The notes below the pieces were generated by a model, which was given only the letters and a program-made list of their open reading frames with translations, made no database searches and was not told where the DNA came from. Below are positions 4,346 to 32,000 of a DNA stretch of 32,000 nucleotides, in pieces. The translations under genes and the position numbers were made by a program. Position 1 is the first letter of the stretch; every line of letters starts with the position of its first letter. The DNA is from Candidatus Nanosynbacter sp. BB002 (GTDB taxonomy: Bacteria > Patescibacteriota > Saccharimonadia > Saccharimonadales > Saccharimonadaceae), in the NCBI RefSeq assembly GCF_037013405.1, contig NZ_CP146064.1, forward strand, positions 690,001-722,000, written 5' to 3'.

Positions 4346-4905
4346 TTGAGTTTTTCCTTTATCTTTTCGACTTTAGTACCATACTCAGCGATAATGTCGT
4401 TGAGCTCGCGAACTGATGATGACAATTTGAGCCGTGCATCACGAGCAATGTTGAACTGAGCATAAAAATCAGTTGGCTGATTTTTGCAATCAATCTTCAG
4501 AAGTGCTGCCAAGGCAGATTCATATTCATTATACCGAGAGGAGAACAATGACCGACCCTTTTCGAACCGACTCGTCAAAGAAACAAGGTCTGCAGCATCA
4601 ATCTTGTTCACTGCTAAGCGACCGTTCAGGCGTGCCATCAGGCGCGAAGAAATATCATTGTACGCTTGACCGGTGTTTACTCGTAAAATTGCGTCACTAT
4701 AATGCAGTCGACTGAGATTTCCACGAATATCCTGGCAATTGGCTTTGATGGCATCAATTCCATTTGCAGATTCGGCTTGACCATCAAGCGCTTTCACGAC
4801 AACCGAGGACCCGACAATTACACCAGCAATAACCATCAAAAACGCGAGACTTGTAACAGCTTGTTTCATCTGTTCCATTGTCCCGCGTTTTTGGATTGTT
4901 GTCAA
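4342..4905 (-). CDS. hypothetical membrane-anchored or secreted helical protein
   Basis: N-terminal hydrophobic segment SLAFLMVIAGVIVGSSVVV followed by a helical body containing two Cys. The start could also be M10 or M13. Confidence 0.5.
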   Translation of the reverse strand: MTTIQKRGTMEQMKQAVTSLAFLMVIAGVIVGSSVVVKALDGQAESANGIDAIKANCQDIRGNLSRLHYSDAILRVNTGQAYNDISSRLMARLNGRLAVNKIDAADLVSLTSRFEKGRSLFSSRYNEYESALAALLKIDCKNQPTDFYAQFNIARDARLKLSSSVRELNDIIAEYGTKVEKIKEKLK

Positions 4906-4906
4906 A

Positions 4907-5176
4907 TTATTTCAGGCTTTTTTCAACATCACCTTTAACATCGTGAGCCGCTTCGGTGGTAGCTTTACCTACTTTTTGCGCACCAGACTTCAGAGAAGCA
5001 GCGGTGTCTTTTGCCACTGTTTTTGCCTTTGCTGCACACTTGTCAGCATCTTTTTTCAACTCGTTAGCTTTTTTCTTTAAGTCTTTGCGAGTTTCCTTAC
5101 CACTTTTTGGTGCAGTCAATACACCAGCCGCAAAACCAGCTACCGCAGCACCTAAGACAGTTAATACTTTTTTCAT
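4907..5176 (-). CDS. YtxH-like protein
   Basis: MKKVLTVLGAAVAGFAAGVLTAPKSGKETRKDLKKKANELKKDA is the typical YtxH N-terminus plus a Lys-rich helix. Confidence 0.7.
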   Translation of the reverse strand: MKKVLTVLGAAVAGFAAGVLTAPKSGKETRKDLKKKANELKKDADKCAAKAKTVAKDTAASLKSGAQKVGKATTEAAHDVKGDVEKSLK

Positions 5177-5224
5177 AGTTTCTCCTTTGTTTGTTTATTG
5201 TTGGGTCTTACTGACGAATCCTTG

Positions 5225-5446
5225 CTACTTCCGCCGAAAAAGCCGAGAAGCTTCAGTAAAGACTTTTCTTGGTGACAGCCATTCTGTAGCTTGTGCAATA
5301 TTGTGCGCTGCTGTTTCAGCTTGGCTGGCAATACGTTTGAGTTTTACCAAGAGCGAGATTATTATACTGAACAAGATGATGATCGCCACTGAGTGGACCA
5401 CAATCACCGCAGTCATCAGTATAATAACTGTTTGCATATCTTCCAT
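5225..5446 (-). CDS. small membrane protein, DUF948-like (tentative)
   Basis: N-terminal TM helix then a helical tail. AAAGGAAAGG ribosome-binding site directly upstream. Adjacent to YtxH, as in Firmicutes ytx clusters. Confidence 0.5.
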   Translation of the reverse strand: MEDMQTVIILMTAVIVVHSVAIIILFSIIISLLVKLKRIASQAETAAHNIAQATEWLSPRKVFTEASRLFRRK

Positions 5447-5494
5447 ACCTTTCCTTTGATTTGTTGTTTATATTTGTCGTATCGACTGGTTATT

Positions 5495-16827: not shown

Positions 16828-17739
16828 CTAGCGGCGGCGCAAGAAATAATAGCCAATCAACAATGCCGCCACAGCGCTGACGCCGGTGATTTTCCAGAAC
16901 ATTGCCGGGTCATCCCCACCAGGAACTGGCACATTCATACCAAACAAGCCAGCGATCATGGTCGGTATAGTGAGCGCCAATGTGATGACGGTCAGCAACC
17001 GAATGGTTTCGTTCAGGCGCGTATCCATCACCGCCCGATAGCTATCGCGCACGTTGGTGATGGTACGCAGCAATGATTTACAGCGACTAATCACCTGCTC
17101 CAGATCAATGGAAATATCTTCAACGTCTTCCTTGGCATCCGACCGAAGCATCAATGCTTTATGCGCAATCATCCGCTCCACTGACAAGTTCATCGGCACC
17201 AAGGCATCCATATAATCATTCAGTTTGCGCTCATATTCAGCTAATGTGGCAATATCGCGCGCTCGCAATGTTCGAATATCGCCAGTCGCCGCCCGCATTT
17301 GACGGTTGATGGCAGCCACCCGGCGCTGATATTGCGTTGCTAACGCATCAATCATGTCAACCAGCAGGGTAATTCGACTTGACGTGGATACCACATGTTT
17401 ATCAATAAACGGCTGCCACAATCTACCTAGGCTATCTCGCGAAATGGTGATGATATAATCCGCATGAATCACAAACAAAATTGGTGTAGTAAAGTCATTA
17501 AAATCATCGTCAGTATCCGGCAATCGGGCAATCAAATATGTCCGCTCATTGTCCGCGTCCAAGCGAGGAACCTCGTGGGGGTCCAATGCGTCGGTGATGA
17601 TATCAGCATCAATCCCCAGTGACAATAACTGGGAAATCTCCTCTTCATTTGGCCGCTCACAACGAATCCAAGAGCCCTTAACTAAGTTCTCTCTGATGGT
17701 AAGCTTGCCAGAATCGTCAGATTTAAGATACTGCAACAT
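16828..17739 (-). CDS. corA: CorA-family divalent cation transporter (paralog 2)
   Basis: C-terminal GLFGMNVPVPG (GMN motif) between two TM helices, 303 aa. Confidence 0.8.
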   Translation of the reverse strand: MLQYLKSDDSGKLTIRENLVKGSWIRCERPNEEEISQLLSLGIDADIITDALDPHEVPRLDADNERTYLIARLPDTDDDFNDFTTPILFVIHADYIITISRDSLGRLWQPFIDKHVVSTSSRITLLVDMIDALATQYQRRVAAINRQMRAATGDIRTLRARDIATLAEYERKLNDYMDALVPMNLSVERMIAHKALMLRSDAKEDVEDISIDLEQVISRCKSLLRTITNVRDSYRAVMDTRLNETIRLLTVITLALTIPTMIAGLFGMNVPVPGGDDPAMFWKITGVSAVAALLIGYYFLRRR

Positions 17740-17747
17740 ACCTGTTA

Positions 17748-17756
17748 TTTATATCA
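17748..17756 (-). promoter_or_regulatory. extended -10 TGaTATAAA, 8 nt upstream of ATG 17739
   Basis: Minus strand reads tga tataaa taacaggt ATG. Confidence 0.4.
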
Positions 17757-17784
17757 TGAAAATTAGATAAAAGCAATGCTTTGG

Positions 17785-18738
17785 CTATGAAACAATCCGC
17801 GTGCCCGCCGTCCCGTCGATAGCCTCAGTAGTTTTTTCCAATGAGGTAATGACCGCGGTACGACCCTCGCCACCTGACACAAATTGCAAGGCTGCTTGCG
17901 CTTTTGGCAGCATGGATCCAGCGGCAAACTGACCATCATCAATGTGTTTTTGCATCTCTACTGCAGAGATTTGCCCCAAAGCTTCTTCATTTGGTTGGTT
18001 GAAATTGACCTTGGCGGCATCAACCGAAGTTAAAATCAGCAGAGTGTCTGCGTGCAGCAAATTAGCCAAGGTTGCCGCTCCAAAGTCTTTATCGATGACT
18101 GCTTCAACACCCTTGAGCGTGCCGTCTTCCTGACGCAATACGGGGATGCCGCCACCACCAGTTGACACCACCAGAACACCCGCTTCAACCAAGGCTTTGA
18201 TGATCGGCGCCTCGACAATTTCCACTGGTTTTGGTGATGGCACCACACGGCGCCAACCACGACCAGCATCTTCCTTAACAACATAGCCACGCTCAGCCTG
18301 CACCGCCTTCGCTTCTTCTTCTGAATAAAATGGACCAATTGGTTTGGTTGGGTTTTGGAACGCTGCATCATCCCCAGAGACAATGGTCTGCGTCACCAAA
18401 CTAACAGCGTGCTTATCAGTCATCTGATGAGCCCTGAAGCTGTCTTGAAAGGCTTGCTGCAACCAAAAGCCGATCAGACCTTGACTCATAGCCCCACAAT
18501 CATCTAGTGGTAAGCTCGGTACATCATCAGTATTAACAGCCTCTTCATGCAAGACAATGTTTCCCACCTGGGGACCGTTGCCATGAACGATAGCTATTCT
18601 ATGTCCTGCTTGAACAAGTGGTAATAACTGTCGTATCGTCTCAGCCGCTACTCGGCGCTGTGCTTCTGAAGAGGCTTCGCCCTGCTTCTGCAGGGCGTTA
18701 CCTCCAAGAGCAACGACAATAGTTCGCTGCTTATCCAT
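17785..18738 (-). CDS. arcC: carbamate kinase
   Basis: IVVALGGNAL N-terminus, HGNGPQVG, about 317 aa. Last gene of the ADI operon. Confidence 0.9.
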   Translation of the reverse strand: MDKQRTIVVALGGNALQKQGEASSEAQRRVAAETIRQLLPLVQAGHRIAIVHGNGPQVGNIVLHEEAVNTDDVPSLPLDDCGAMSQGLIGFWLQQAFQDSFRAHQMTDKHAVSLVTQTIVSGDDAAFQNPTKPIGPFYSEEEAKAVQAERGYVVKEDAGRGWRRVVPSPKPVEIVEAPIIKALVEAGVLVVSTGGGGIPVLRQEDGTLKGVEAVIDKDFGAATLANLLHADTLLILTSVDAAKVNFNQPNEEALGQISAVEMQKHIDDGQFAAGSMLPKAQAALQFVSGGEGRTAVITSLEKTTEAIDGTAGTRIVS

Positions 18739-18741
18739 AGG

Positions 18742-20289
18742 CTATCCTAATACTCCAAAGGCAGCGATGACCGCAACGCTGATGATTGCGAAAACTGCCA
18801 TGATTGGTGCTGAACGTCGCAGCCATGCGCGGTATGAGACACCAGCCAGTGCCAAACCGCCCATCAAGGAAGCGATGGTTGGTGCCATCATGTTAAGCAA
18901 ACCTGATGCTGTAGCAAAGGCTGCCACCATGACTTCTTTGCTTGAGCCAACCAGATCAGCAATCGGCGCAATAACTGGCATAGTTGCTGCTGCCAAACCT
19001 GATGATGACGGCACGATGAAGGACATTGGCAAGTAGAACAGATACGCCAGCACACCAACAACGCCACCGCCAGCATCTTTCAGAAGCGCTTCGCCCCAGC
19101 TAATGATAGTATCTTGGATTTCACCGTTAGTCATCACGACAGAGACGCCGGTTGCCACTGCGATAATCAAAGCAACTGGTAAGATATCTTTCACGCCGTC
19201 AATGAAGGTGTCAACTGGGAAAATACCTTCTTTTTTAAACTCTTTATAGTAAATTGCGGTAATAACAATTGTTGAGATTAAGAATAGTGCGGTAATTTCA
19301 TTAAAGTACCAATCACCAAAGGCCGCACTGTGCACTACGCCAAATACTGCACCGATAATTGGCAACTCTGAAGCCCACTTAAATAGGTCAGTGAATACTG
19401 TAATCTCCCAACTTCCCCAAGGAATCAGCGAAAGGACCATCAAGACAAACGTAATAGCGAAGACGCCCATGACGACTTTTCGTGGACCAGTAAATTTTGG
19501 TACGTTCGTCATATCCAAGGCTGCTGTGACTGGCTTATAACGAACATCTTCCTTATACTTGCCTGCTTTTACCTTTGCTGCGTAACGCATAGTAAAGATG
19601 ATTGCCGCGATCAAACATAGCACCAAAATGATAGACATTATTGGGATAACATTGCCCAATTTAACATCAGCAGTCTTTGCGGCAACACCGGTGGAGAATG
19701 GGTTAATAGTCGAACCAAGCACACCAGCACCAGCACCCAGTACAATCACCATCACACCAGTCATTGCGTTATAGCCGGCAGCGATCATCATCGGAATAAC
19801 TAGCGCGTAAAACGCCACAGTTTCTTCCTGCATACCGTAAGTTGTACCACCGATAGCAAACAACGTCATTAAGATTGGAATGAGCCATTTTTCTTTGCCC
19901 TTCATCTTACGAAGTAGCGCACCGAGTGAAGCATCCAGGGCGCCAGTCTTCATGGTAACGCCCAAGAATCCACCAAGTACCATAACGAAGACTATAACGT
20001 CTAGCTTATCGGACATACCTTTAATGGGTGCTGTGAAGACGTCCCATAAGCCTTGCCGGTCATGCTTGTCAACTTTCTCTTCTTTACCGTCCTTTTCTTC
20101 AGTGACGGTGCGGTCTTTTTCAACCACATGATACGATCCCGCAACACGGTTACCATCGTCATCAGTCTTATAGACGCCCGACGGAATAATCCATGTCAAC
20201 GCTGCCATGATTGCGATCACGACAAACAAAATCGTAAACGCCGATGGCGATCGAAGCTTCTGCTTTGCTTTTTTAATTTTTTCTACCAT
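18742..20289 (-). CDS. YfcC/DcuC-type anaerobic carrier family permease (putative arginine/ornithine exchanger of the ADI operon)
   Basis: 515 aa, polytopic, with the overall look of YfcC-family proteins. GAAGGAGG SD upstream. Embedded between arcB and arcC. Confidence 0.7.
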   Translation of the reverse strand: MVEKIKKAKQKLRSPSAFTILFVVIAIMAALTWIIPSGVYKTDDDGNRVAGSYHVVEKDRTVTEEKDGKEEKVDKHDRQGLWDVFTAPIKGMSDKLDVIVFVMVLGGFLGVTMKTGALDASLGALLRKMKGKEKWLIPILMTLFAIGGTTYGMQEETVAFYALVIPMMIAAGYNAMTGVMVIVLGAGAGVLGSTINPFSTGVAAKTADVKLGNVIPIMSIILVLCLIAAIIFTMRYAAKVKAGKYKEDVRYKPVTAALDMTNVPKFTGPRKVVMGVFAITFVLMVLSLIPWGSWEITVFTDLFKWASELPIIGAVFGVVHSAAFGDWYFNEITALFLISTIVITAIYYKEFKKEGIFPVDTFIDGVKDILPVALIIAVATGVSVVMTNGEIQDTIISWGEALLKDAGGGVVGVLAYLFYLPMSFIVPSSSGLAAATMPVIAPIADLVGSSKEVMVAAFATASGLLNMMAPTIASLMGGLALAGVSYRAWLRRSAPIMAVFAIISVAVIAAFGVLG

Positions 20290-20328
20290 TGCCTCGGAGC
20301 CTCCTTCACTCCCTTATTACGACAACTA

Positions 20329-21318
20329 CTACAATGTCAAAGCCATGACAGCTTTGATTGTATGCATACGATTTTCCGCTTGGTCAAATACAACTGAATG
20401 TGGTGAGCGGAACACCTCATCAGTCACCTCCATTGATTCTAATCCAAAATCTTCCTGAACTTTTTTGCCAGTGATAGTCAATGCGTCATGGAATGCTGGC
20501 AAGCAGTGCATGAATTTTACTTCAGGATTGCCTGTCAGGTTGATCATGTCACGGTTAACCTGGAAGTTGCGTAATTGGTTGATACGCTCAGCGAACTTGT
20601 CTTCCTCACCCATCGACACCCAAACGTCAGTGTAAATCACGTCAGCATCACGCAGAGCTTCCTCAAAATTATCAGTGATAGTGATGCGCGCGTGGCTTGA
20701 TCGTGCTAAGTGATGCGCCCGGTCTACCAGCGACTGCTCGGGATGTAGTTCACGTGGTGCCAAGATACGGAAATCAACGCCCATAATGGCTGAACCAATC
20801 ATCAGCGAATTTGCCATGTTATTGCGGCCATCACCAACGAACACCAGCTTGGTGCCTTTGAGCTTGCCGACATGCTCCTCGATAGTCATGAAATCAGCCA
20901 AAATCTGTGTCGGGTGGAATTTGTCGGTCAGGCCGTTCCAGACCGGAACACCAGCATGACGAGCCAATTCCTCAACTGTCCCGTGATCAAACCCGCGAAA
21001 TTCAATACCATCAAACATGCGGCCCAGCACCTTAGCAGTGTCTTCAACTGTCTCTTTTTTGCCCAGCTGAATGTCGTCTTTGCCGAGGTATTCTGGCGCG
21101 ACACCCAGGTCATTAGCCGCCACGGTAAAGGCGCAGCGCGTGCGAGTTGAGGTTTTCTCAAACAACAGCGCCACGTTTTTGCCTTCATGAATTCGGTGCG
21201 GTACACCAGTGTATTTCAAGCGCTTGTATTCACGTGCCGTGTCCAGCAACAGGCGGATTTCTCCAGCAGTATAATCATTCAGCGTCAGGAATGATCGTCC
21301 TTTCAAGCTCAACGCCAT
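20329..21318 (-). CDS. arcB: ornithine carbamoyltransferase (catabolic context)
   Basis: [12 protein letters not shown] carbamoyl-phosphate site and HCLPAFH ornithine site. 1-nt TAATG-type overlap with arcA. Confidence 0.9.
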
Positions 21319-22553
21319 TACACATCCTCCCTCACGATTGGCATACTCATACAGCGTGGACCACCGCGACCGCGTCCAAGCTCTGATCCATTGACCTCAA
21401 TCACTTCAACGCCGGCATCACGCAGTTTTTGGTTGGTAACATAGTTACGGTCATACGTCACCACAACGCCTGGTGCAATAGCCAGGGTGTTGGAGCCGTC
21501 ATTCCACTGCTCACGGGCTGCAGCAATTCGGTCGCCACCACCACACTCGATCAACGTGACTGCTGGCAAGCCCAAGGCGACTCGCAAGACATGTTCCAAG
21601 TCGGTCTCACGCGTGATGCGCGGGAATGGCTGACCTTCAACCTTCTCCAAAATAAAGCAGTTGATTTTACCACCGTGGTCGCGAATTTCTGGGTGAATGG
21701 TAAACTTATCATAGTCAATCATGGTAAACACCGTGTCGAGGTGCATGAACGCATGCGACTTTGGAATTTCCATGGCGATAACCTTTTTGAAATCAGAACC
21801 AGCAAACAGTTTGGTTGCCATTTTTTCAATTGCTTCAGCAGAAGTTCGCTCGCTGATACCAATCGCCATCACTTCTCGATTCAGCACCAACTCGTCACCA
21901 CCTTCGATAGAATATTTCTCATGGCGGTCATACCATACTGGTACGTTTTTGCCAGCAAACCGTGGGTGATGGTCGATGATATAGCGCATGAACAATGACT
22001 CGCGACGGCGAGCTGGCCAGTGCATCTTGTTAATTGTCAGGCCTTGACCAATTGCCGCAGCCGGATCACGCGTAAAGTACAAGTTTGGCATTGGGTCAAG
22101 ATAAAATGGATAGTAATCTTTCTCGACCATGTCATGTAGCTGCTGATGGTGCTCTGGTGGCAAAGTGATTTCATCTTTACGAACACCAGCCATCAACTTG
22201 CGAACCATGGCGTGGGTTGGCAAGTCTAGCAAAAATTGACGCAACGTTTCAGTGACACGACGAGTGCCTTGCTTGGAGTTAGCAAGCATGTCGTCGACAA
22301 ACTGCTCACGCAACGCATCAGTCGCCAAGGCTTCTGTCGCCAATTGATCCAAGTACAACACTTCTACGCCACGCTCACGTAAAACTTGCGCAAAAGCGTC
22401 ATGTTCTTCTTGTGCTTTTTTAAGATATGGGATGTCGTCAAATAAAAGGTCGGTCAGATAATCCGGAGTCAAATTTTCCAACTCCTCACCTGGCCGATGC
22501 AAGACAACTACTTTTAATTTCCCGATTTCCGATGTAATATGTATTGGATCCAT
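21318..22553 (-). CDS. arcA: arginine deiminase
   Basis: N-terminal [15 protein letters not shown] and C-terminal GGPRCMSMP (catalytic Cys), 411 aa. Confidence 0.95.
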
Positions 22554-22588
22554 ACCCCCGTCCCCTTTTTGTTTATGGTTATACTAAT

Positions 22589-22597
22589 AATATAGCA
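22589..22597 (-). promoter_or_regulatory. extended -10 TGcTATATT for the arc operon (leadered, G-rich SD before ATG 22553)
   Basis: Minus strand reads tgc tatatt, then a leader of about 35 nt ending in aaaaggggacgggggt ATG. Confidence 0.45.
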
Positions 22598-22635
22598 TAT
22601 ACCAAATAGAACACAAGCATCATTCAGAGGTTAGC

Positions 22636-23250
22636 TCATCGCCGAATGATGGCCAATGATGACTCGACTGCCACCCGAGCTGGATGACGCTTCAGCCATG
22701 CATCAACCGCCCGTGCTGCGCCTGGCAGCGCTTCATTGGCGTAGTCATCGACGATGATAGTCGCCGTTTTCTGAAACTTGCCGTCGCACACGCGAAACGA
22801 GTCAACGATTGATTCATAAAAATCGCCATCAAAAAACGCAAAGATGATACTTTCCGGCACGTCGTCAGGAACAAAATCAGCAAACCAGCCTTTGTGGATG
22901 ATCGGCAGTTTCAAGCCAGCCTTTTTGAAGTTTTGGATGAAGGTTTTGCGTGGTGCGAGCAGTTCACCGGCCTTGAACTGCTCGCCGGCAGCGCTGGCGT
23001 CGGCTTGGGTTTTTTCTGGCAAGCCCATAAACGAATCGTAAACATGAAACTCGCCGGTAAAATCATAGGCGTCCAACAGCCGCCGGATGAACAAACTCGT
23101 CGTGCCGACATAACAGCCAAACTCGACGATGTTGCCAGTCGCACCACTTCGTAGCACTGTTTCCAGTTCCCGCAACAACACGCCGAGTTCTTTGGTGTCA
23201 ACTTGGTCGGAAATGATGGGATGTTTGGTGAGGAGTTGGTCGGTGATCAT
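22636..23250 (-). CDS. TylF/macrocin-O-methyltransferase-family SAM-dependent methyltransferase
   Basis: GNIVEFGCYVGTTSLFI (SAM site) and FFDGDFYESIVDSF (metal-binding DGD.YES motif of the TylF family). Start at MITDQLL (ATG 23250). Confidence 0.7.
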   Translation of the reverse strand: MITDQLLTKHPIISDQVDTKELGVLLRELETVLRSGATGNIVEFGCYVGTTSLFIRRLLDAYDFTGEFHVYDSFMGLPEKTQADASAAGEQFKAGELLAPRKTFIQNFKKAGLKLPIIHKGWFADFVPDDVPESIIFAFFDGDFYESIVDSFRVCDGKFQKTATIIVDDYANEALPGAARAVDAWLKRHPARVAVESSLAIIRR

Positions 23251-23258
23251 TATGAACT

Positions 23259-23447
23259 TTAACGAGCCTCCGACAGTCCAGTAATGGCAATGATGATGGT
23301 ACTGACGGCGAGGCATCCCACCAAAAACTCAAGCGGCACATCTGGCTTAAGATAGGCAAAAATCGCCGTGCCAATCCACATAACTACAATGATTCCCGCG
23401 GCATATGGATAGCGGACTTGCATCACCCATTGTTGTAATTGCTTCAT
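23259..23447 (-). CDS. 62-aa two-TM membrane protein
   Basis: Two hydrophobic helices. ATGA overlap with the ABC1 kinase stop. Confidence 0.5.
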   Translation of the reverse strand: MKQLQQWVMQVRYPYAAGIIVVMWIGTAIFAYLKPDVPLEFLVGCLAVSTIIIAITGLSEAR

Positions 23448-24895
23448 GCTAATTCTCCTTTTTGTAGCAACATAGTGTAAGCGGTCCTGTCACGTTCCGC
23501 AACCTTACTCATCCAGTCCATCACTATCTCTTGTGCCAACTCAATACTCATCGGCGACGAGTGCACCACCTCGCTCACTCCATGACTATTGGCATGAACC
23601 TCGGCCAACTCCAGTGCATCATGAACAATCTGCCAATAGCGCGTCCGTCGGTACGCATCACCACACGCCAGCCGCGCTGCCGCCAAATAATGATACAAAC
23701 CGCGCTGTAACATAATATTAGCGCTGTCCACCTTGATGGCAAAACGATTGCCAGCATTCAACTCACTGAGAAACAGCTGAGTTATTTGTCGATTAGCAGC
23801 GAATGTACTGGTTGTCGATTGGATTAACGTATGAGCGTATTCATAAATACCCCGAGCTAAGCTGCGATCTTTGGCGATCACATCCAGCGCTTGATACAAG
23901 GTATGGTCATAAAACGCCAGCATCGCCAGCGCCAACAAACCCATGTCAGCTCGATCTTCATACAGCGCTCGGTACTGCACAATCACATGGTAAAACGAAG
24001 CGCGATGTCGCGGAGCTGCCACTGCCAAGCCAAAGTCGATCAGCGCAACTTTGTTGTCTCTCAGTAAATAAATATTGCCTGGATGCGGATCAGCCATGAT
24101 GACGTCTGCTCGTAAAATTGCAATTAAAAACTCACTGCCAACCGTAACCAATTGCTGCTGCATATCAGAGCCAAGCTGGTCTTTGACAAACCGGTAAGTA
24201 TCACCTCCTGTTTGCGCCTGTTCCACCACCTCAGTCAGCGGCAGCCCTTCTATACATTCCTGAACCAATATCCGCCGCGTTGAGTACTCAACCAGCGTCT
24301 CTGGCACCACAACTTTGTCAGTGCGGTGCGCAAAATATTCACGAATTGCCTGGGCTGTAATTAGCTCGCGCTGATAATCAGTTTCGCGCTTGGTGGTTTT
24401 GATAAACTCATCAGCAATCTTAACCAGTGGGAAAATATCGTTCTTTAGCATGAACTGTCCGACCCAACAGCAAAAATGCAGCACGGCAAGGTCAAAATTC
24501 AGATGGCGGACCACGCTGGAACGAAGGATTTTGAGAATATATCGATTACTTGGGCAGTCAACCAGACAGCAGTGATAGACCTGGGCGAATGAACCCGTAG
24601 CGAACGGCTGATCTTCCTCGACGACTATTTGACTCGCTTTGTTGCCAAGCTCTTGCCGCAAAATCTCAGCAACGTCAATTGGCTCAACTGCCACATTATC
24701 AAAAGCATCCAGCCGATATCCAGACGCAGCATACACCTGAGCCATCAGTTCAGTCGACGCCAAATGCTGCAAAAACTTGACATACACGCCACCTAATCTG
24801 TGACACTCATCTGACAAAACTTTGAGCCACAACTGGTCACTGCGCCACGCGCGCCATACTCGAACTAACGCCCGGATGACAAACAGTAAACGCAC
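23444..24895 (-). CDS. ABC1/UbiB-family atypical protein kinase-like protein
   Basis: FATGSFAQVYHC ... ILKILR ... IMADPHPGNIYLL ... LIDFGLAV. GTG start abutting the upstream TAA. No TM helices of its own. Confidence 0.8.
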   Translation of the reverse strand: MRLLFVIRALVRVWRAWRSDQLWLKVLSDECHRLGGVYVKFLQHLASTELMAQVYAASGYRLDAFDNVAVEPIDVAEILRQELGNKASQIVVEEDQPFATGSFAQVYHCCLVDCPSNRYILKILRSSVVRHLNFDLAVLHFCCWVGQFMLKNDIFPLVKIADEFIKTTKRETDYQRELITAQAIREYFAHRTDKVVVPETLVEYSTRRILVQECIEGLPLTEVVEQAQTGGDTYRFVKDQLGSDMQQQLVTVGSEFLIAILRADVIMADPHPGNIYLLRDNKVALIDFGLAVAAPRHRASFYHVIVQYRALYEDRADMGLLALAMLAFYDHTLYQALDVIAKDRSLARGIYEYAHTLIQSTTSTFAANRQITQLFLSELNAGNRFAIKVDSANIMLQRGLYHYLAAARLACGDAYRRTRYWQIVHDALELAEVHANSHGVSEVVHSSPMSIELAQEIVMDWMSKVAERDRTAYTMLLQKGELA

Positions 24896-25048
24896 TTACC
24901 TGGCCCTCCGAAACCCAATGAAGTATAACACCAGCGTCAAAATCAACACGCAAACGTACAAAAACAAGGGGTCAATGCTCGTATTTACCAACAGCAGCAT
25001 AGCCAGCCAAATCGCCACTATACTCACAAACACAAAAGCATATCTCAC
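24896..25048 (-). CDS. candidate 50-aa two-TM membrane protein (first gene of the ABC1 operon)
   Basis: GTG 25048 lies 6 nt downstream of TGtTACAAT. Translation VRYAFVFVSIVAIWLAMLLLVNTSIDPLFLYVCVLILTLVLYFIGFRRAR. Its TAA is immediately followed by the kinase GTG. Below the ORF-track length cutoff. Confidence 0.45.
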   Translation of the reverse strand: MRYAFVFVSIVAIWLAMLLLVNTSIDPLFLYVCVLILTLVLYFIGFRRAR

Positions 25049-25054
25049 AGGTTT

Positions 25055-25063
25055 ATTGTAACA
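25055..25063 (-). promoter_or_regulatory. extended -10 TGtTACAAT, 6 nt upstream of GTG 25048
   Basis: Minus strand reads tgt tacaat aaacct GTG. Confidence 0.45.
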
Positions 25064-25192
25064 TATCGCCTGGTGGCTCTCCAGGGGTTGCTTGGTAAAT
25101 CAGCTATCACGGGCATCTAATTTACCACAGTGAGTTTTACCCTGTTCTGCGGTCTCATGTTTTACCGCAGCCTACAACAGACAACGCCGGAG

Positions 25193-25201
25193 TGATACAA
25201 T
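25193..25201 (+). promoter_or_regulatory. extended -10 TGaTACAAT, 6 nt upstream of ATG 25208
   Basis: Read directly: tga tacaat tacacc ATG. Confidence 0.5.
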
Positions 25202-25207
25202 TACACC

Positions 25208-25669
25208 ATGAAGATATCTAGCTCTGCGTTCGCCGAAAACGCTAAAATACCAAAAATTTACGCCAAGCTTGGCGGCAACCAATGCCCGCCACTCGAAGTC
25301 AGCGGCGTACCGGCAGACGCCAAAAGTCTGGTGGTTGTCTGCCACGACCCTGATGCGCCTGGGCGCGATGGATTCTACCATTGGACGGTTTGGAATCTGC
25401 CAGCAGAAACTACTGAAATCACTGGCGAGTCATTACCCGCGGGCGCTGTCGAGGGGGTTACCAGCTGGGGCCATCCCGGCTGGGGTGGGCCGCAGCCGCC
25501 GTTTGGCACGCACCGCTATCAATTTTACGTGTACGCGCTGGACACGACGTTGGATTCACCAAGCGACACTAAACCAAAAGAGCTCATCGCTGCCCTCACA
25601 TCGCACATCATTGACCAAGCCGTGCTGACTGGAAAGTTTGGCGTGTTGGATATTTTGCGGCGGGATTAA
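25208..25669 (+). CDS. YbhB/YbcL-family PEBP (Raf kinase inhibitor-like) protein
   Basis: CHDPDAPGRDGFYHW and GPQPPFGTHRYQFYVYALD motifs. Confidence 0.85.
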   Translation: MKISSSAFAENAKIPKIYAKLGGNQCPPLEVSGVPADAKSLVVVCHDPDAPGRDGFYHWTVWNLPAETTEITGESLPAGAVEGVTSWGHPGWGGPQPPFGTHRYQFYVYALDTTLDSPSDTKPKELIAALTSHIIDQAVLTGKFGVLDILRRD

Positions 25670-25748
25670 GCATCACTTTCTCTGGGCGAAAGTCTACAGA
25701 CCATTAAACGACACCACCAACCCTATTCTGTCATCTATATTTTTTAAT

Positions 25749-28295
25749 TTATAACAGTTCACGCACTAGGTTAATATACATTAACGAGATACCTTCTTCG
25801 CGCATGATTTTTAAGAAAGAAGTCTTATCAGTGCACACAGGACTTTCTTGATCAATTAAGATAAGTTCCCTCAGATTACTATTTTCGTGAATTATTTTTG
25901 CTAAACTACAATCAATCCCCGCTCTAATAAGAGCAATTTTAAAGTCATTATCAGTGCCATACTTTATACGTTTATAAAACGATTCATCGACTACACCAAA
26001 ATCATTTAATATCTCAAGAAATGGAATAATATAATGGTCAACATTATCAAGATTCTCCTTAGCTAAAGCAGCCGCATAGCTTGGCATTAAATTTTGGGTC
26101 TGCTGCTGAAATATATGATATTTATTCCACAATCCGGTTTTACCATCGATACCACAACTTCCTATATCGCCAACATATACTGGGTTTCCGATTTCACCAC
26201 GCCATATAGAAACGTACCTTGCAATTAGTGTAGAAAAGCTGGATTCATTATCAGCTTTTTCGTCAATAATTCTTATATAAATATCCCTTATAAACGGCTT
26301 TGTGTATAGTAAATATATCCAATTCCCATACTTATGTTTGTCGATTCTGAGATCTGTCTGATATGTCACCTCAAGAAAAACACTGATAATCGTATTTAAT
26401 AACTTATCACCATTATCAATTATTTGAGTATCCAAGAGGCGCTCCACCTTTTTAGAGATGATTTGTTCATATTTCACAATATCAAATATTTTCACGTTAT
26501 GGGCATAACACTTAGCACCTAGTTTAGTCTGCGCTAATAATGGTTTTAGGTTGTTAATTTGCGAATACATACCTCCTCTTGTTTTGTCTATATTTGCAAG
26601 TATGTTAACTTCATCAACAATTCTAGACTCCTTATCGCTTCCTTTATAAGAAGCAAGGAGCGGGTTATTGATACTGTCCTCAACCATGACTCCTTCCTTG
26701 GCATGCTCCGATAAGAATTTACTAGCATTTGCCCTCTTCGCCATATAATCGTCATTCTTAATTATATATATTTCTGGTGTTAATAATTCCATTCTTGGGT
26801 TTGTCAAATCAAAGATTATGTTATAACGACCCACCCTGCCCACTAAATTTCTGAAGTCAGGAATATCCAAGCATTTAGCCCCCTTGGAATAGTTCATTAA
26901 GAATAATTTACTTGCAGGAATATTCACACCTTCGAGTAACGTACTCGTAGTAACAATGAATCTAATCTCAGGAATATTACGATACAAGAACTCCACATAT
27001 TCCTTAATAGTGTCCGGTATCTTACCGTGACTGATAACTATGCCGTGTTTAACGAGCTTTATTAGATTATAGGAAGGATGGACATAACTTGATAATATAT
27101 TACATGCATCATCAATTATAACTTGACTTTCGGGGCTGTATTTAATTTCTGGCGCCCTAGCAGCTAGCGCATCGGCGAGTTTTTCAACTCCGCTTGGCTT
27201 ATTAATATAAATAATATTTTTATCCCCACCTCTACTAAATAATATTTGGTAATAATCTGTAGACGATTCAGTTACTTCGTAAAAATTTGCCGTAAACTGA
27301 TCAAATAGAGCCAACCGTTGACTATTATTATCCCAAAGAAAATAACGTGGTATTTTCATATACTCAGTAATTTTTCTTGACTGTATTTCTTCTGAATTCT
27401 GCCCATCGCCTACAAGGCGTAGACTTGATATTGGATCTACAATAAAAGGAGAATAGTAATCGATATCCACGCTTGATTTTCTATTACTAGCAATAATAAT
27501 CGCCCTTGAGAGAGTTAAGAATCTATCATCATCTTTAAATAAATTATGAGATTCATCAATAAATAGATAGTCTATTATTAACTCATCATGTTTCGCCAAT
27601 AATGCCATTAGTCGCTCCTGCGTTAACACAGCAATGAATTGGCTATGTTTGTATTTTTCAACATACATATCAGGATGAGTTATAACATCGGTTCGATTTC
27701 CTTTTATATTTAACACCATCGATACCGTTTGATTTATCAATGATTTAGTGGGCACAACTATACAAACAGACAAGCCGTCATTGAATTTTTCAACAGATTT
27801 AGACACCATCAAATGAGATTTGCCATAAGAAGTTGGCGCGACAACAGCAAGATTAGAGAAGTTTCTAACGCTACGACCCAGTCTAAATTGTTGCTCTGAT
27901 TTATAATATTCCTCCTTGTACGATTCTGCTAGCGACTTATTGAATAGGCTATCCATGTCATCTATAGTCTCCGATTCTGTTATGTAATTATGCTGCGTAG
28001 CTTTTATGAGCATAAGAACAGGATAGTATCGTAATAAGCTAGCAAAATCAGATAACACATAAAAATCCTTGCTAAGAAGCCCGTAGTTTAGGGCCATTGA
28101 ATATGCCATTTTTTGCACATCCTCATCACCATAAAGTGAAAAATAGTTTAGGATTCTATACGTAAATTGCATCTCATCCCAAGTTAGACGTTGTCTCAAT
28201 ATTATTTTTTTGTATACTTTAGCAAATAAGAAATTATGATCCTTAGATTTTCTTGTTAATACCGACCTTAAAGAGCTAAGGGTAATCTTATACAT
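25749..28295 (-). CDS. superfamily-2 DExH helicase, Ski2/Hel308-like core; HamB-like candidate
   Basis: Motif I VVAPTSYGKS (27816-27839), Ia VVPTKSLINQ, II FIDESH (DESH at 27546-27557), IVa/V SHGKIPDTIKEYVEFLY ... VTTSTLLEGVNIPA, VI NLVGRVGR. Start at ATG 28295, 5 nt after AGGAGG (28301-28306); the track start is an upstream TTG. Confidence 0.8.
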   Translation of the reverse strand: MYKITLSSLRSVLTRKSKDHNFLFAKVYKKIILRQRLTWDEMQFTYRILNYFSLYGDEDVQKMAYSMALNYGLLSKDFYVLSDFASLLRYYPVLMLIKATQHNYITESETIDDMDSLFNKSLAESYKEEYYKSEQQFRLGRSVRNFSNLAVVAPTSYGKSHLMVSKSVEKFNDGLSVCIVVPTKSLINQTVSMVLNIKGNRTDVITHPDMYVEKYKHSQFIAVLTQERLMALLAKHDELIIDYLFIDESHNLFKDDDRFLTLSRAIIIASNRKSSVDIDYYSPFIVDPISSLRLVGDGQNSEEIQSRKITEYMKIPRYFLWDNNSQRLALFDQFTANFYEVTESSTDYYQILFSRGGDKNIIYINKPSGVEKLADALAARAPEIKYSPESQVIIDDACNILSSYVHPSYNLIKLVKHGIVISHGKIPDTIKEYVEFLYRNIPEIRFIVTTSTLLEGVNIPASKLFLMNYSKGAKCLDIPDFRNLVGRVGRYNIIFDLTNPRMELLTPEIYIIKNDDYMAKRANASKFLSEHAKEGVMVEDSINNPLLASYKGSDKESRIVDEVNILANIDKTRGGMYSQINNLKPLLAQTKLGAKCYAHNVKIFDIVKYEQIISKKVERLLDTQIIDNGDKLLNTIISVFLEVTYQTDLRIDKHKYGNWIYLLYTKPFIRDIYIRIIDEKADNESSFSTLIARYVSIWRGEIGNPVYVGDIGSCGIDGKTGLWNKYHIFQQQTQNLMPSYAAALAKENLDNVDHYIIPFLEILNDFGVVDESFYKRIKYGTDNDFKIALIRAGIDCSLAKIIHENSNLRELILIDQESPVCTDKTSFLKIMREEGISLMYINLVRELL

Positions 28296-29118
28296 CAGAC
28301 CCTCCTTCAATTCCTAAGAAATCGATAATATCATCAAACATCTTACGATGAATACAGATAATTATAAAATTGTCAAAACACTCTGTCTTCTTTATGTCAT
28401 CAATTTTCCTAATAATATCTTTCGCATCTGTTATATCATAAGCAAAATCCCCAAAATTAACTGCCATAAGAATTGCGTTACGGTTAGTCCCCTCCCGTTG
28501 ATAAACCATACTTCTACTGTTAGACAGTAACTTGGTCAACTCTATTTTTTTCTCCGACGCAAATATTACCGCCACCTCTGCCTTAGCAGCCTCCCATCTA
28601 TATCGAGTGGATGCCTTTCCTTCCGACATAATATTATCAAAGTAGTTCTTAAGGCCCTTGCTCGCCCTATTAATTAGCTCTTCGCGATTAGTTTTTTCAA
28701 CTAACCCAGATTTTACCTCGCCATACCATATTTTTTTACGGTCCTTGTCATAAAAATTTAAATCAAAACCTGGCTTTATATTCCGATTTTGAAGTGCAAA
28801 TATTCTACTCATGCTTTCAGCTGAAAAATCTAAATAGTTTGAAGCTAGAATATGCATCAATAACTCACCAATAACCCCGTACTTGCCTTCTTCGTCTTTA
28901 CGACTCATTAGATTTTCATACATCTGCCTACAAGCAGCTTGGTAGGTATATTCATCAGGCTCAATAGCAATAGGCTCTGTGCCATAGCAGACCTCTGCCA
29001 ATTTAACCCTTATCATTTCTTTAAGGTCTTCAAAATGATGATCATTAATATTTAGTATTCTATACTTTACATGACCGTATTCATCTTTCACACACAATAT
29101 ATCGTCAGATAAAGACAT
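28288..29118 (-). CDS. PD-(D/E)xK nuclease-like protein; HamA (DUF1837)-like candidate
   Basis: GE85LLMH helix, GFD119, then YGE134VK136SG (28711-28764) gives an E...D...ExK constellation. 276 aa, sits directly upstream of and overlaps the helicase gene. No other domain recognised. Confidence 0.6.
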   Translation of the reverse strand: MSLSDDILCVKDEYGHVKYRILNINDHHFEDLKEMIRVKLAEVCYGTEPIAIEPDEYTYQAACRQMYENLMSRKDEEGKYGVIGELLMHILASNYLDFSAESMSRIFALQNRNIKPGFDLNFYDKDRKKIWYGEVKSGLVEKTNREELINRASKGLKNYFDNIMSEGKASTRYRWEAAKAEVAVIFASEKKIELTKLLSNSRSMVYQREGTNRNAILMAVNFGDFAYDITDAKDIIRKIDDIKKTECFDNFIIICIHRKMFDDIIDFLGIEGGSDV

Positions 29119-29125
29119 TCTACTG

Positions 29126-29195
29126 AATATACTCCATATATAATCTTTTTATCTAAAATAAAAGATTTAATTCAATTATATGACTTATTATATCA
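29126..29195 (-). promoter_or_regulatory. promoter region of the island operon: TATATT 7 nt upstream of ATG 29118, and/or an upstream extended -10 TGaTATAAT (29187-29195)
   Basis: Minus strand reads TATATT cagtaga ATG (29131-29116). Further upstream is TTGTAC-N15-TATAAT, with the spacer ending in the extended -10 TGa. Which one is used cannot be decided from sequence. Confidence 0.4.
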
Positions 29196-29240
29196 TTTTA
29201 GTGATTAGTACAACTGAATGCTAACTTTGTCAGCGTACAC

Positions 29241-31238
29241 TCACTCAGCAAACTGACTATTATACAGCTCGGCATAAAAGCCATTTTTCTTCAGCAGTTC
29301 GTCGTGCTTGCCTTGCTCGATGATGTTGCCGTCGCGGACGACCAAGATCAAATCAGCGTCGCGGATGGTACTCAGGCGGTGGGCGATGACGAAGCTAGTC
29401 TTACCCTGCATCAACTTGTCCATGGCTTTTTGGATGAGCACTTCAGTGCGGGTGTCGACCGAGCTGGTGGCTTCGTCCAAAATCAGCATTGGCGTGCGCG
29501 CCAGCATCGCCCGGGCAATCGTCAGCAGCTGCTTTTCGCCCTGTGAAATGTTCGTTGCTTCCTCGCCCAGCACCATATCGTAGCCGCCCGGCAGCGACCG
29601 CACGAAGTGGTCGACATGCGCCTCCTTGGCGGTAGCGACCATCTCTTCTTCGCTGGCCGTTGGATTGCCGTAGAGCAAATTTTGGCGAATCGTGCCGTTG
29701 AATAGCCAAGTATCCTGCAGCACCATGCCAAACATTTGCCGCACGTCGCTGCGCTTCATGTTGGCGATATTGACGCCATCAATTTTGATCGCGCCGCTGT
29801 TAATTTCATAAAATCGCATCAGCAAATTAACCAGCGTCGTTTTGCCTGCGCCCGTCGGACCGACGATCGCCACGCGCTGACCTGGCTTGATGTGCGCCGA
29901 CAAACCTTTGATGATGGTTTGGTCGGGTTGGTAGCCAAAGACTACGTTGTCAAATTCGACTTCGCCCTTGACGTGCGTCAATTTTACCAAATCCCTACTC
30001 TCCGCCTTTTCTTCCAGCTCGTCCAAAAATTCAAACACGCGCTCGGCGGCAGCGGCGGTCGATTGCAGCACATTGGCGATATTAGCAACTTGCACCAGCG
30101 GCTGGTTAAATTGGTCGATGTACTGGATGAATGCCTGAATGTCACCGATTTTCAGCCGGCCGTTAATCGCCAGCCAACCGCCCAAAATCGCCATGATGAC
30201 GTAGCCGATGTTGCCGATGAAATTCATGATCGGATAAATCAGCCCCGACAAAAATTGGGCTTTCCAGGCGCTTTCCTGTAACTGATCATTCACCCGCGAA
30301 AACTTAGCCAGCGACTTTTTCTGGCCGTTGAATACGCGCATCACTTGATGGCCGCCGTACATTTCTTCGATGTGGCCATTCAATTCACCCAGCTGCGTCT
30401 GTTGACGGAGGAATTGTTTTTGCGAGCTTTTGGCGATCAGCGTCACTGCGCCGCCAGCCAGCGGCAACACCAGTAGCGCTACCAGCGACATTTGCCAGCT
30501 GATGGAAAACATCATCACCAAAATCCCCAGCACCATCACCGTTGAGGAGACGATTTGCGATAGGCTTTGATTGAGCGTCTGGCTGATAGTGTCAACATCG
30601 TTAGTGACGCGGCTGAGAACTTCGCCGTAGGTTTGCTTGTCAAAATAACTCAGCGGCAGGCGGTTGATTTTCTCGGACAATTGCCGGCGCATTCTGAAAG
30701 TAACTGTCTGCGTCACTTGGGTCATCAGCCAGGTTTGGATGTAGCGAAAAATGGCGCTAAGTATGTACAGACCGATCAGCAAACTGACGACCTGCCAAAC
30801 GGCATCAAAGTGAAATTCTGGACGCCGGCTGAGATCCAGCTTTTTGATGGTCTCGAGCTGGTTGGATGGAATTTGGCTTTCAATTTCCGACTTGTTCGGC
30901 AGACGCTTCAAAATATCAGCACCAGTCGTGCCAGCCGGCAATGAAGCACCCTTTGGCAGCTTGCTGGTGATGGTCTCATACGCCTTCATGCTGACATAAT
31001 CTTCGACGATTTGGTTGGTAGCGCCGCCCAAAATTTTCGGACTGATAATCGCGAAAGTCGTACTACCGACTGCAAAGATCGCCACCATGAGCATGTGCCA
31101 GCGGAATTCTGCCAAATATTTAGCTAACTTCTTGACCGTGCCTTTGAAATCTTTGGCTTTTTCGCCCGCGCCCATACCGCCGCCCATTGGACCGCCCATC
31201 TTCACTGGCTGGCGTTTTTTCATGCTTTGTTGAGCCAT
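29241..31238 (-). CDS. ABC exporter fused permease/ATPase, subunit with the consensus catalytic site
   Basis: Six-TM exporter domain, Walker A GPTGAGKTT, Walker B LILDEATSSVD (catalytic Glu present), atypical signature ISQGEKQ. Start at MAQQSMKK (ATG 31238), sharing one base with the upstream TAA. Confidence 0.85.
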   Translation of the reverse strand: MAQQSMKKRQPVKMGGPMGGGMGAGEKAKDFKGTVKKLAKYLAEFRWHMLMVAIFAVGSTTFAIISPKILGGATNQIVEDYVSMKAYETITSKLPKGASLPAGTTGADILKRLPNKSEIESQIPSNQLETIKKLDLSRRPEFHFDAVWQVVSLLIGLYILSAIFRYIQTWLMTQVTQTVTFRMRRQLSEKINRLPLSYFDKQTYGEVLSRVTNDVDTISQTLNQSLSQIVSSTVMVLGILVMMFSISWQMSLVALLVLPLAGGAVTLIAKSSQKQFLRQQTQLGELNGHIEEMYGGHQVMRVFNGQKKSLAKFSRVNDQLQESAWKAQFLSGLIYPIMNFIGNIGYVIMAILGGWLAINGRLKIGDIQAFIQYIDQFNQPLVQVANIANVLQSTAAAAERVFEFLDELEEKAESRDLVKLTHVKGEVEFDNVVFGYQPDQTIIKGLSAHIKPGQRVAIVGPTGAGKTTLVNLLMRFYEINSGAIKIDGVNIANMKRSDVRQMFGMVLQDTWLFNGTIRQNLLYGNPTASEEEMVATAKEAHVDHFVRSLPGGYDMVLGEEATNISQGEKQLLTIARAMLARTPMLILDEATSSVDTRTEVLIQKAMDKLMQGKTSFVIAHRLSTIRDADLILVVRDGNIIEQGKHDELLKKNGFYAELYNSQFAE

Positions 31239-32000
31239 TACGCCGCTCCTTTCGCGGTCGTCACCGACATTTTCTGCAGGTCGTCTTCTGAGAGCTGGGA
31301 AGCAGCAATTTCTTGATAGACTTGGCAATTTTTCATCAATTCCTGGTGAGTGCCCTGACCGACAATTTTACCTTCGTCCAGCACGATGATTTTGTCAGCG
31401 TTCATGATGGTATTGATGCGCTGACCGACGATGAGCACAGTTTTATGCTTGGTTTCTTTTGCCAGTGCCGAGCGTAATTTAGCGTCAGTCTTGAAATCCA
31501 GCGCCGAGAACGAATCGTCAAAAATGTAGACATTCGGCTCCACAGCAATCGCCCGGGCAATCGACAAACGCTGCCGTTGACCACCGGAAACATTGCTGCC
31601 GCCTTGAGCGATGTCATTTTTGTAACCGTTTTTTAGCTCGCTGATGAACTCGGTAGCTTGCGCGATTTTAGCGGATTTTTCGACCAATTTTTGGCTGGCT
31701 TTGGCGTTGCCGTACTTGATATTGCTGGCGATCGTCCCGCTAAACAACACACCCTTTTGCGGTACGTAGCCGATTTGATCGTACAAATCTTCCAACTTGA
31801 GCTGGCGAATATCCACGCCATCCAGCAAAATCTGCCCCGCCGACACATCGTAAAAGCGCGGGATCAAATTGATCAACGTCGATTTGCCCGAGCCAGTACT
31901 GCCAATGAACGCTGTGGTTTGCCCTGGTTCGGCCGTGAAATTGATACTTGAGAGCACCGGCAAGTCAGCGTCTGGATAGGTAAAAGTGACGTCTTTGAAT
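31238..32000 (-). CDS. ABC exporter fused permease/ATPase, partner subunit (NBD only; gene continues beyond the right edge)
   Basis: The reading frame stays open to the window edge (FKDVTFTYPDADLPVLSS...). Walker A GSTGSGKST, signature VSGGQRQR, Walker B YIFDDSFSALD with Asp in place of the catalytic Glu. Confidence 0.85.
   Translation of the reverse strand, partial: FKDVTFTYPDADLPVLSSINFTAEPGQTTAFIGSTGSGKSTLINLIPRFYDVSAGQILLDGVDIRQLKLEDLYDQIGYVPQKGVLFSGTIASNIKYGNAKASQKLVEKSAKIAQATEFISELKNGYKNDIAQGGSNVSGGQRQRLSIARAIAVEPNVYIFDDSFSALDFKTDAKLRSALAKETKHKTVLIVGQRINTIMNADKIIVLDEGKIVGQGTHQELMKNCQVYQEIAASQLSEDDLQKMSVTTAKGAA

Follow-up and report, generated by a model that had tools for sequence, protein, structure and literature searches.

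The question raised by this locus is why a housekeeping stretch of a very small bacterial genome should be interrupted by a block of low G+C DNA that carries a predicted nuclease gene and a helicase gene. The window analysed here is the whole 32,000-nucleotide stretch from Candidatus Nanosynbacter sp. BB002, and the block occupies its positions 25670-29240. We consider it highly probable that the two genes are an intact Hachiman defence system, HamA1/HamB1 or type I in PADLOC terms, carried by the chromosome of a human-oral member of the Saccharibacteria (a Nanosynbacter-like episymbiont with a genome below about 0.85 Mb), and that the site they fill swaps its cargo between alternative occupants, at least seven in all. 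A first-pass annotation, made from the letters alone, had proposed both a HamA/HamB layout and a reduced-genome episymbiont as host. Both proposals hold, as the two proteins match Hachiman families (PF08878 for HamA, PADLOC HamB1 for HamB) and the host belongs to Candidatus Saccharibacteria. The system and its genes are as follows.

25670-29240, minus strand: HamAB cassette, 3,571 bp; it makes up the entire variable stretch bounded by the stop codons of two convergent genes, PEBP and the ABC exporter.
28288-29118, minus strand: hamA, 276 amino acids (aa), predicted DUF1837 effector nuclease of PD-(D/E)xK type (Pfam HamA match and residues E85/D119/E134/K136).
25749-28295, minus strand: hamB, 848 aa, Ski2/Hel308-like superfamily 2 (SF2) DExH helicase and predicted sensor (PADLOC HamB1, Pfam, motifs and fold).

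The predicted nuclease and the helicase

HamA was recognised by family membership and by its conserved residues. The DUF1837 identity first suggested for the 276-aa protein was borne out by a match to Pfam PF08878 (HamA/DUF1837) at 29.1 bits, over the curated cutoff of 25, with residues 31-239 aligned to profile positions 2-198 of 230; the match to PADLOC HamA1 was weak (1.5e-4). A profile search of 1.84 billion representatives recovered 263 cluster representatives at E <=0.001. In an alignment of 79 sequences, whose members are 19-80% identical to the window protein, G46, E85, D119, E134, K136 and W175 are invariant and no other residues are. The D119/E134/K136 constellation that had been picked out from this single sequence is therefore kept across diverse relatives, and together with E85 it makes up the predicted catalytic site. 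Its counterparts are D127/E147/K149 in Streptococcus thermophilus and E138/K140 in Escherichia coli ECOR31, where they are needed for defence. The Pfam HamA family was matched by 41 of the 79 subfamily members (best 2e-13), and NCBI names a protein 80% identical to HamA 'DUF1837 domain-containing'.

The evidence for HamB is broader, and the 848-aa Ski2/Hel308-type DExH helicase of the first-pass annotation stands (an alternative TTG start at 28310 would give 853 aa). HamB matched 20 PADLOC HamB models, the best being HamB1 at 4e-69, as well as Pfam DEAD and ResIII. Its SF2 motifs are intact, comprising Q136, Walker A APTSYGKS at 153-160 (GKS at 158-160), motif II DESH at 247-250, motif V at 451-460 and motif VI (G486/R487/R490), and in an alignment of 63 homologues Walker A, DESH and motif VI show no variation. 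Sequence matches in the PDB were to 9wh1_B (1.5e-26), AbpB 8zue_B (6e-12) and HamB 8vx9_B (1.2e-8); 9wh1, an 853-aa chain labelled 'DNA polymerase theta (helicase domain only)', was not confirmed as a Hachiman complex. The AlphaFold2 model of HamB is confident (predicted local distance difference test, pLDDT, 88.5; predicted template modelling score, pTM, 0.87) and has a Hel308-like fold. In Foldseek, its alignments to the Pol-theta helicase domain and to Hel308/Hjm took in 800-870 columns at E of about 1e-17, and it also matched HamB 8vxa_A, and AbpB 8zue_B (TM 0.53/0.67), over the full length.

About 135 aa at the N-terminus and 350 aa at the C-terminus of HamB could not be assigned from the sequence at first, and a divergent or new Hachiman subtype had been suggested on that account. 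Three observations would fit such a subtype, or an AbpAB-type system with extra domains: the PADLOC and Pfam alignments of HamB span mainly residues 95-533, HamA is remote from all solved HamA chains, and the HamA subfamily is small, at the 263 representatives given above. Set against this, 1,159 HamB homologues were found, and among the matches listed those of 815-850 aa are 30-35% identical to the query across 92-100% of its length and come from Gammaproteobacteria, Firmicutes and Paceibacterota; the closest relatives among the matches listed (58-71% identity) are all from Saccharibacteria. Columns invariant or nearly so in the 63 sequences reach both ends of the protein, namely F24, Y28, Y65, L81 and P92 towards the N-terminus and W698, G712, A741, K746, E747, E761, Y774 and K778-T781 towards the C-terminus. 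Moreover, the top-scoring PADLOC models, all HamB1 profiles, are 845-866 positions long and the structural model aligns end to end with Hel308 and Pol-theta. On the model, the N-terminal ~130 aa can be read as a helical domain and the C-terminal ~350 aa as Hel308-type accessory domains. Since these regions are common to the whole family, neither end marks a new subtype, and that suggestion was dropped. An AbpAB-type fusion was likewise rejected, as the DUF1837 match takes up residues 31-239 of a 276-aa HamA whose active-site residues are intact, leaving no room for the Cap4-like N-terminal fusion of AbpA. We therefore regard an AbpAB-type system or a new subtype as very unlikely, and the two-gene Hachiman assignment is the one followed below.

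A second alternative is that the pair is a housekeeping helicase-nuclease for DNA repair or replication, with a Hel308/RecQ-like function and no role in immunity. In its favour, the solved folds nearest to HamB include Hel308 and the Pol-theta helicase domain, and published Hachiman responds to DNA damage. However, HamB scored 26 bits against the NCBIfam Hel308 equivalog NF002654, for which the cutoff is 887 bits, and is thus not a housekeeping Hel308 orthologue; it was detected by HamB-specific models at 4e-69. In addition, hamB is always paired with a DUF1837 gene: at every homologous hamB locus examined, from 41% to 97% HamB identity, hamA lies directly upstream and overlaps it, and such pairs often adjoin restriction-modification genes. 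The distribution of the pair, considered in the next section, bears on the same point.

The two genes are co-oriented and overlapping, as first described. The features of the operon and its expression signals are given below.

28288-28305, minus strand: hamA-hamB junction, with GGAGG at 28305-28301, hamB ATG at 28295-28293 and hamA stop TAA at 28290-28288; 8-nt overlap.
29119-29240, minus strand: cassette-borne 5' region, with TTGTAY at 29213-29208, 15 nt, and the putative extended -10 TGATATAAT at 29195-29187.
29135-29132, minus strand: hamA Shine-Dalgarno GGAG, in the cassette leader.
25675-25693, no strand assigned: short hairpin with arms ACTTTC and GAAAGT and a 7-nt loop, lying between the stop codons of hamB and PEBP; not called by the terminator scan.

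The GGAGG lies within the end of hamA, 5 nt upstream of the hamB ATG, and given this internal site and the 8-nt overlap the two genes are probably translationally coupled. TTGTAY, TGATATAAT and GGAG are invariant in an alignment of the cassette leader from four lineages with three different left neighbours, and we infer that the first two form the cassette's own promoter. A generic scan of the window gave 18 promoter-like sites where chance predicts 15.2, no real excess, so the proposal draws solely on conservation across cassette copies. The terminator scan was also at chance level (3 sites against 3.1 expected); the hairpin at 25675-25693 might conceivably serve as a shared terminator.

How the system would act can be proposed from work on HamAB of E. 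coli and S. thermophilus (PMC12278908, PMC11914072, PMC13064477). HamA and HamB would form a heterodimer (PMC12278908) in which HamB surveys DNA and keeps HamA restrained on intact double-stranded DNA. Loading of HamB on 3' single-stranded or damaged DNA arising from phage infection would start ATP-driven helicase activity and so activate HamA, which would then degrade DNA non-specifically, aborting the infection at the cost of the cell.

Variable cargo between two core genes

The interval is sharply set off from its surroundings. Its G+C is 34.4%, against 48.4% in the other 28.4 kb of the window; 500-bp windows within it range from 0.326 to 0.400, the two adjoining windows are at 0.536 and 0.546, and the next-lowest windows are at about 0.41, making this the deepest drop in the window. 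The first-pass annotation had put it at about 30% between flanks of 55% and above, so the drop is real and the figures were slightly exaggerated. Its coordinates were exact, running from stop codon to stop codon: the PEBP stop codon finishes with base 25669 at the right-hand edge, and that of the ABC exporter opens with base 29241 at the left. The interval holds two substantial open reading frames (ORFs), hamA and hamB, and one further ORF of at least 60 aa, a 60-aa frame antisense within hamA. The same junctions recur in more than 15 independent metagenome contigs, so the island is not an assembly artefact. Look-ups by exact protein placed the locus in Human Microbiome Project and other metagenome assemblies, and a comparison of the window with Logan contig SRR29249473_5 over 11.3 kb (20670-32000) showed the two to be identical. 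The two genes that anchor the interval are:

25208-25669, plus strand: PEBP/YbhB-family gene, right-hand anchor (Pfam PBP 1.7e-35); not part of the system.
29241-31238, minus strand: ABC exporter gene, 665 aa from its ATG, left-hand anchor (Pfam ABC_membrane and ABC_tran); its protein is 95-97% identical across species, and the recombination breakpoints lie within it.

Species-representative genomes were scanned with the ABC1 kinase, which gave 35 loci (numbered with the prefix L), all labelled Candidatus Saccharibacteria, Saccharimonas or Nanosynbacter and several of them oral. The comparison was then made on the 24 species genomes with both anchors on one contig, taking the gap as the distance from exporter stop to PEBP stop. 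The gap was occupied as follows.

CN-hydrolase gene, 278-280 aa (a 234-aa ORF in one species): 15 of 24 species; gap 0.9 kb, G+C 0.42-0.44; Pfam 7.5e-43.
Avs2, about 1,333 aa: 5 of 24 species; gap 4.2-4.3 kb; PADLOC 1e-249.
HamAB: 1 of 24 species (L025), besides the window; gap 3.6 kb; 95% HamA and 89% HamB identity to the window.
IetA/IetS: 1 of 24 species; gap 4.0 kb; IetA 1e-41, IetS 4e-61.
MmeI-like type IIG enzyme, SF2 helicase, T5orf172 protein and C5 methyltransferase: 1 of 24 species; gap 7.2 kb; type IIG enzyme 7e-300.
DUF4238 protein, 423 aa: 1 of 24 species (L042:7898-9169); gap 1.4 kb; Pfam 1.2e-12.
Two small predicted membrane proteins, 195 and 178 aa: 1 of 24 species (L050:7935-9061); gap 1.5 kb; no family match, the PADLOC scan of the pair having taken in the 178-aa protein only.

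Homology between versions with different cargo ends 0-3 nt from both stop codons, and cargoes other than the CN-hydrolase gene have a G+C of 0.34-0.40 against 0.49-0.51 in the flanks. The site is a defence hotspot, with variable cargo between conserved core genes at identical boundaries. Comparing related genomes at the PEBP/exporter junction had been proposed as a check on the first-pass annotation; it showed that HamAB is not conserved there, and the multi-cargo hotspot had not been foreseen. PEBP adjoins the site in all 24 species. As it is present whatever the cargo, we rejected it as a third component of the system. Two occupants, the DUF4238 protein and the small membrane-protein pair, have no defence annotation; since the site otherwise holds recognised defence systems, they are candidates for uncharacterised ones.

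These data also bear on the housekeeping explanation. A repair or replication function sits poorly with a pair found at the site in just 1 of 24 related species, with Avs2, IetAS or restriction-modification genes elsewhere, and with a G+C 14 points below that of the genome. Together with the Hel308 scores and the constant DUF1837 partner, this makes a housekeeping role extremely unlikely, and we take it to be largely refuted.

In the single-gene ABC1 tree, the nearest species to the window (L021, 97% nucleotide identity) carries Avs2, and the other HamAB carrier groups among species with the CN-hydrolase gene. The Avs2 gene in the slot of L021 (5031-9034) is split into ORFs of 114 and 1,158 aa; it is probably frameshifted and would be a second disabled defence gene at this site. 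The CN-hydrolase gene, the commonest occupant (L023:8362-9204 and 14 other species loci), is also below its flanks (0.49) in G+C. The defence cargoes all replace this gene and none is added beside it. It may be either the ancestral occupant or another cargo. A common motif of about 30 nt, roughly AAATTATCTCTAGAACAATTAAATCACGAG, stands beside the PEBP stop at the right junction of L021, L029, L033, L042, L043 and L050, some 30 nt ahead of that codon. It accompanies cargoes that are unrelated to each other (Avs2, the type IIG cluster, DUF4238 and the small membrane proteins), is absent from the HamAB and CN-hydrolase versions, and could be a terminator or the remnant of an older junction.

No sign of a mobile element was found. 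The island contains no mobile-element genes, only hamA and hamB; no direct or inverted repeats bracketing it were found; and the window contains no tRNA genes and no Rfam families. Among viral contigs (IMG/VR) there was no close HamB relative, and plasmids held only distant HamB homologues (<=32% identity), with no sign of a plasmid donor. An origin as a prophage, integrative and conjugative element or transposon was therefore rejected, there being no integrase or transposase, repeats, tRNA target or close viral relative.

The rest of the window consists of housekeeping genes, as the first-pass annotation had it. They include Mur ligase, AspRS, TrmB-like and TylF-like methyltransferases, MscS, CorA, ABC-2 transporters, a DsbA-like protein and an arginine deiminase (ADI) operon, together with an ABC1 kinase, PEBP and two ABC exporters. 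The ADI operon is complete (ADI, OTCase, DcuC-type antiporter and carbamate kinase, 16828-22553) and lies within 3 kb of the cassette. A preprint reports more defence systems in oral bacteria of the candidate phyla radiation (CPR) that lack ADI; the window genome has both side by side. The second-lowest G+C in the window (0.41-0.45) is at 4342-5459, where two divergent ORFs, of 187 aa (minus strand) and 167 aa (plus strand), lack any Pfam match.

Probable recent exchange and recurrent loss of the cassette

The cassette appears to have been shared recently. In nine distinct assemblies besides the window's own, its 3,571 bp carry 0 substitutions, three of the nine having an indel, and the other sequence that these assemblies share with the window differs by 2.3-4.9%. 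That divergence is patchy, blocks of 6-12% alternating with identical stretches when strain contigs are compared with the window. Sharply bounded blocks of this kind lie at 21000-23000 (ADI/TylF region) and 29283-30500 (3' half of the exporter) in L001-L010, a pattern suggesting that this population often imports DNA as divergent as that of separate species. On the exporter side, the divergence (blocks of about 7%) begins at 29283, 29593, 29604, 29778 or 30867 depending on the strain, giving five breakpoints. In L002, L006 and L008, no other near-identical stretch in the 17 kb compared comes close in length to the one that runs from about 23150 to 29600-30870, which spans most of ABC1, PEBP, HamAB and part of the exporter.

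In the comparison with another species, L025, synonymous divergence (dS) from the window is 0.09 in hamA and 0.33 in hamB, against 0.56 in PEBP and 0.73 in ABC1. In other Saccharibacteria lineages the cassette has 89-93% nucleotide identity across almost all of its length, starting within 13-28 nt of the left end, and its G+C is always 0.34. Some of these lineages, among them the complete genome CP040002.1, have no exporter genes there, and in them too the cassette adjoins PEBP. Truncated remnants of the exporter 3' end precede the cassette in exporter-less lineages, measuring by nucleotide match 243 bp in L061 (6663-6905, a '56 aa' ORF) and 64 bp in L065 (6816-6879), both in the range of 90-93% identity. 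Donor flank may have hitch-hiked with the cassette, or a later deletion may have removed the exporter genes.

Since the cassette lacks an integrase, att sites and terminal repeats, it is most likely exchanged when DNA that has been taken up recombines with the chromosome by homology within the core genes on either side, and the mosaic flanks and the exporter fragments beside it lead us to infer that donor flanks took part. A fuller account, to which we give slightly less than an even chance, is that an integrase-free slot swaps single defence systems by homologous recombination, that one HamAB allele has spread very recently, with no substitution, across strains up to 5% different elsewhere and been repeatedly frameshifted, and that this HamA clade is so divergent that it may be under-called by standard defence finders.

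The window copy of hamAB is without lesions. Two lesions were mapped among the assemblies that share the cassette.

28692-28697, minus strand: A6 run in hamA; A7 in two independent assemblies (L007, L009), with a frameshift after residue ~142.
27093-27117, minus strand: hamB segment of 25 bp; missing from one assembly (L001; L011 is the same assembly), which leaves HamB split into 399 + 415 aa.

These lesions raise the alternative that the cassette is a decaying or selfish passenger, spread by recombination or as an addiction-like toxic module and giving little real protection from phage. The lesions are independent, and with them go the split hamB of L062, the split Avs2 of the closest species, the costliness of abortive-infection nucleases, including a reported fitness cost of Hachiman with which recurrent loss fits, and the publication only in September 2026 of the first experimental phage-Saccharibacteria interaction. 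Nevertheless, the window copy and six of the nine distinct assemblies are intact, and all catalytic and ATPase residues are kept. Substitution rates against the L025 copy indicate purifying selection on both genes (dN/dS 0.30 for hamA and 0.16 for hamB). Furthermore, the other occupants of the site are nearly all recognised defence systems, which argues for selection there for immunity. A passenger that gives little protection seems unlikely, and an intact Hachiman system remains our reading of the window copy.

Several observations weigh against that reading or against its recent spread. HamA is divergent, its PADLOC HamA1 match being just 19 bits over residues 69-156. Searches of the PDB with the HamA sequence and two profiles found no HamA chain, and its AlphaFold2 model is poor (pLDDT 64), the Foldseek matches not being meaningful. 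The nuclease fold is consequently argued from the Pfam match, the motif and the order of secondary structure; the poor model puts E85 on a helix, D119 where a strand begins and E134/K136 where the following strand finishes, which is the order expected of a PD-(D/E)xK core and lends it weak support. Inactivation of hamA or hamB in three of the nine assemblies, and the split of hamB in one more-distant copy (L062), mean that the system is not always kept functional. Lastly, the strain contigs were retrieved by exact identity of the PEBP or HamA protein, which biases them towards a shared haplotype, and metagenome assemblies may be chimeric between co-occurring strains. For these two reasons our claim is of a recently shared block with multiple breakpoints, not of a proven selective sweep.

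Significance and comparison with known systems

Hachiman itself is well characterised, and the window holds a canonical two-gene type that adds little to Hachiman biology. NCBI already labels the Saccharibacteria relatives 'DUF1837 domain-containing protein' and 'DEAD/DEAH box helicase', and surveys of defence systems in CPR and oral genomes have been published; our literature search found no paper linking Hachiman to Saccharibacteria or describing this slot. An integrase-free defence slot running from stop codon to stop codon in a genome under 1 Mb is of more interest than HamAB itself, as is the devotion of about 0.4% of such a genome to an abortive-infection nuclease-helicase. The presence of five different recognised defence systems in this slot of a few kilobases across sister species supports the view that these episymbionts are exposed to real phage attack, of which the first experimental evidence in Saccharibacteria dates from September 2026. 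If the account of a swapping slot and recent spread of an allele is true, it would be population-genomic evidence for strong, fluctuating phage pressure on CPR episymbionts, which would draw their immune genes from a shared pool. With its two conserved anchor genes as handles, the slot could be amplified or mined from oral metagenomes, which would allow Saccharibacteria defence cargo to be catalogued and new systems to be discovered. Intact alleles coexist with frameshifted ones, moreover, and together they offer a natural experiment on the costs and benefits of Hachiman, which is reported to be responsive to DNA damage and to carry a fitness cost.

The closest known system is Hachiman type I, first described from Bacillus, which has the same order of hamA then hamB, a DUF1837 HamA with D-ExK and a DExH HamB of about 850 aa. 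The window system differs in that its HamA belongs to a divergent subfamily (29 bits in Pfam, 19 bits in PADLOC) and its host is a CPR episymbiont. HamAB of E. coli ECOR31 (PDB 8VX9/8VXA/8VXY; Tuck et al., Cell 2024, PMC12278908) is the same nuclease-helicase pair, with catalytic ExK residues E138/K140 in its HamA where the window has E134/K136. Its HamB is also Ski2/Hel308-like and its fold aligns with the window model (E 3e-16 to 1e-14). However, it is 1,174 aa long against 848 aa and its sequence similarity is confined to RecA2 (1.2e-8). The ECOR31 system has been placed in 'type III-A', the only type reported with an OB-fold domain, and its HamA was not detected by a HamA profile built from relatives of the window protein.

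AbpAB of E. coli K-12 (PDB 8ZUE; PMC11914072, PMC10732053) provides, in AbpB, the best template-normalised structural match to the window HamB (TMq 0.53, TMt 0.67). It is activated by DNA damage or by phage SSB. In AbpA a Cap4-like nuclease is added at the N-terminus and the HamA-like domain is inactive, whereas the window HamA is a stand-alone protein of 276 aa with an intact E-D-ExK site. The helicase domains of Hel308, Hjm and Pol-theta match the HamB fold over RecA1, RecA2 and the C-terminal helical domains. HamB differs from Hel308 and Pol-theta in having only ~14-16% identity and an extra helical N-terminal domain of ~130 aa, and from Hel308 in that its gene is variable in occurrence, low in G+C and paired with DUF1837.

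Defence hotspots flanked by core genes have been described in other bacteria such as E. coli and Pseudomonas aeruginosa. The Saccharibacteria slot resembles them in being a fixed site with mutually exclusive, low-G+C defence cargo. Unlike them, it shows no integrase or mobile-element genes at the window site, is tiny (0.9-7.2 kb, usually one system) with stop-codon-exact boundaries in a host genome under 1 Mb, and has a CN-hydrolase gene as its usual occupant.

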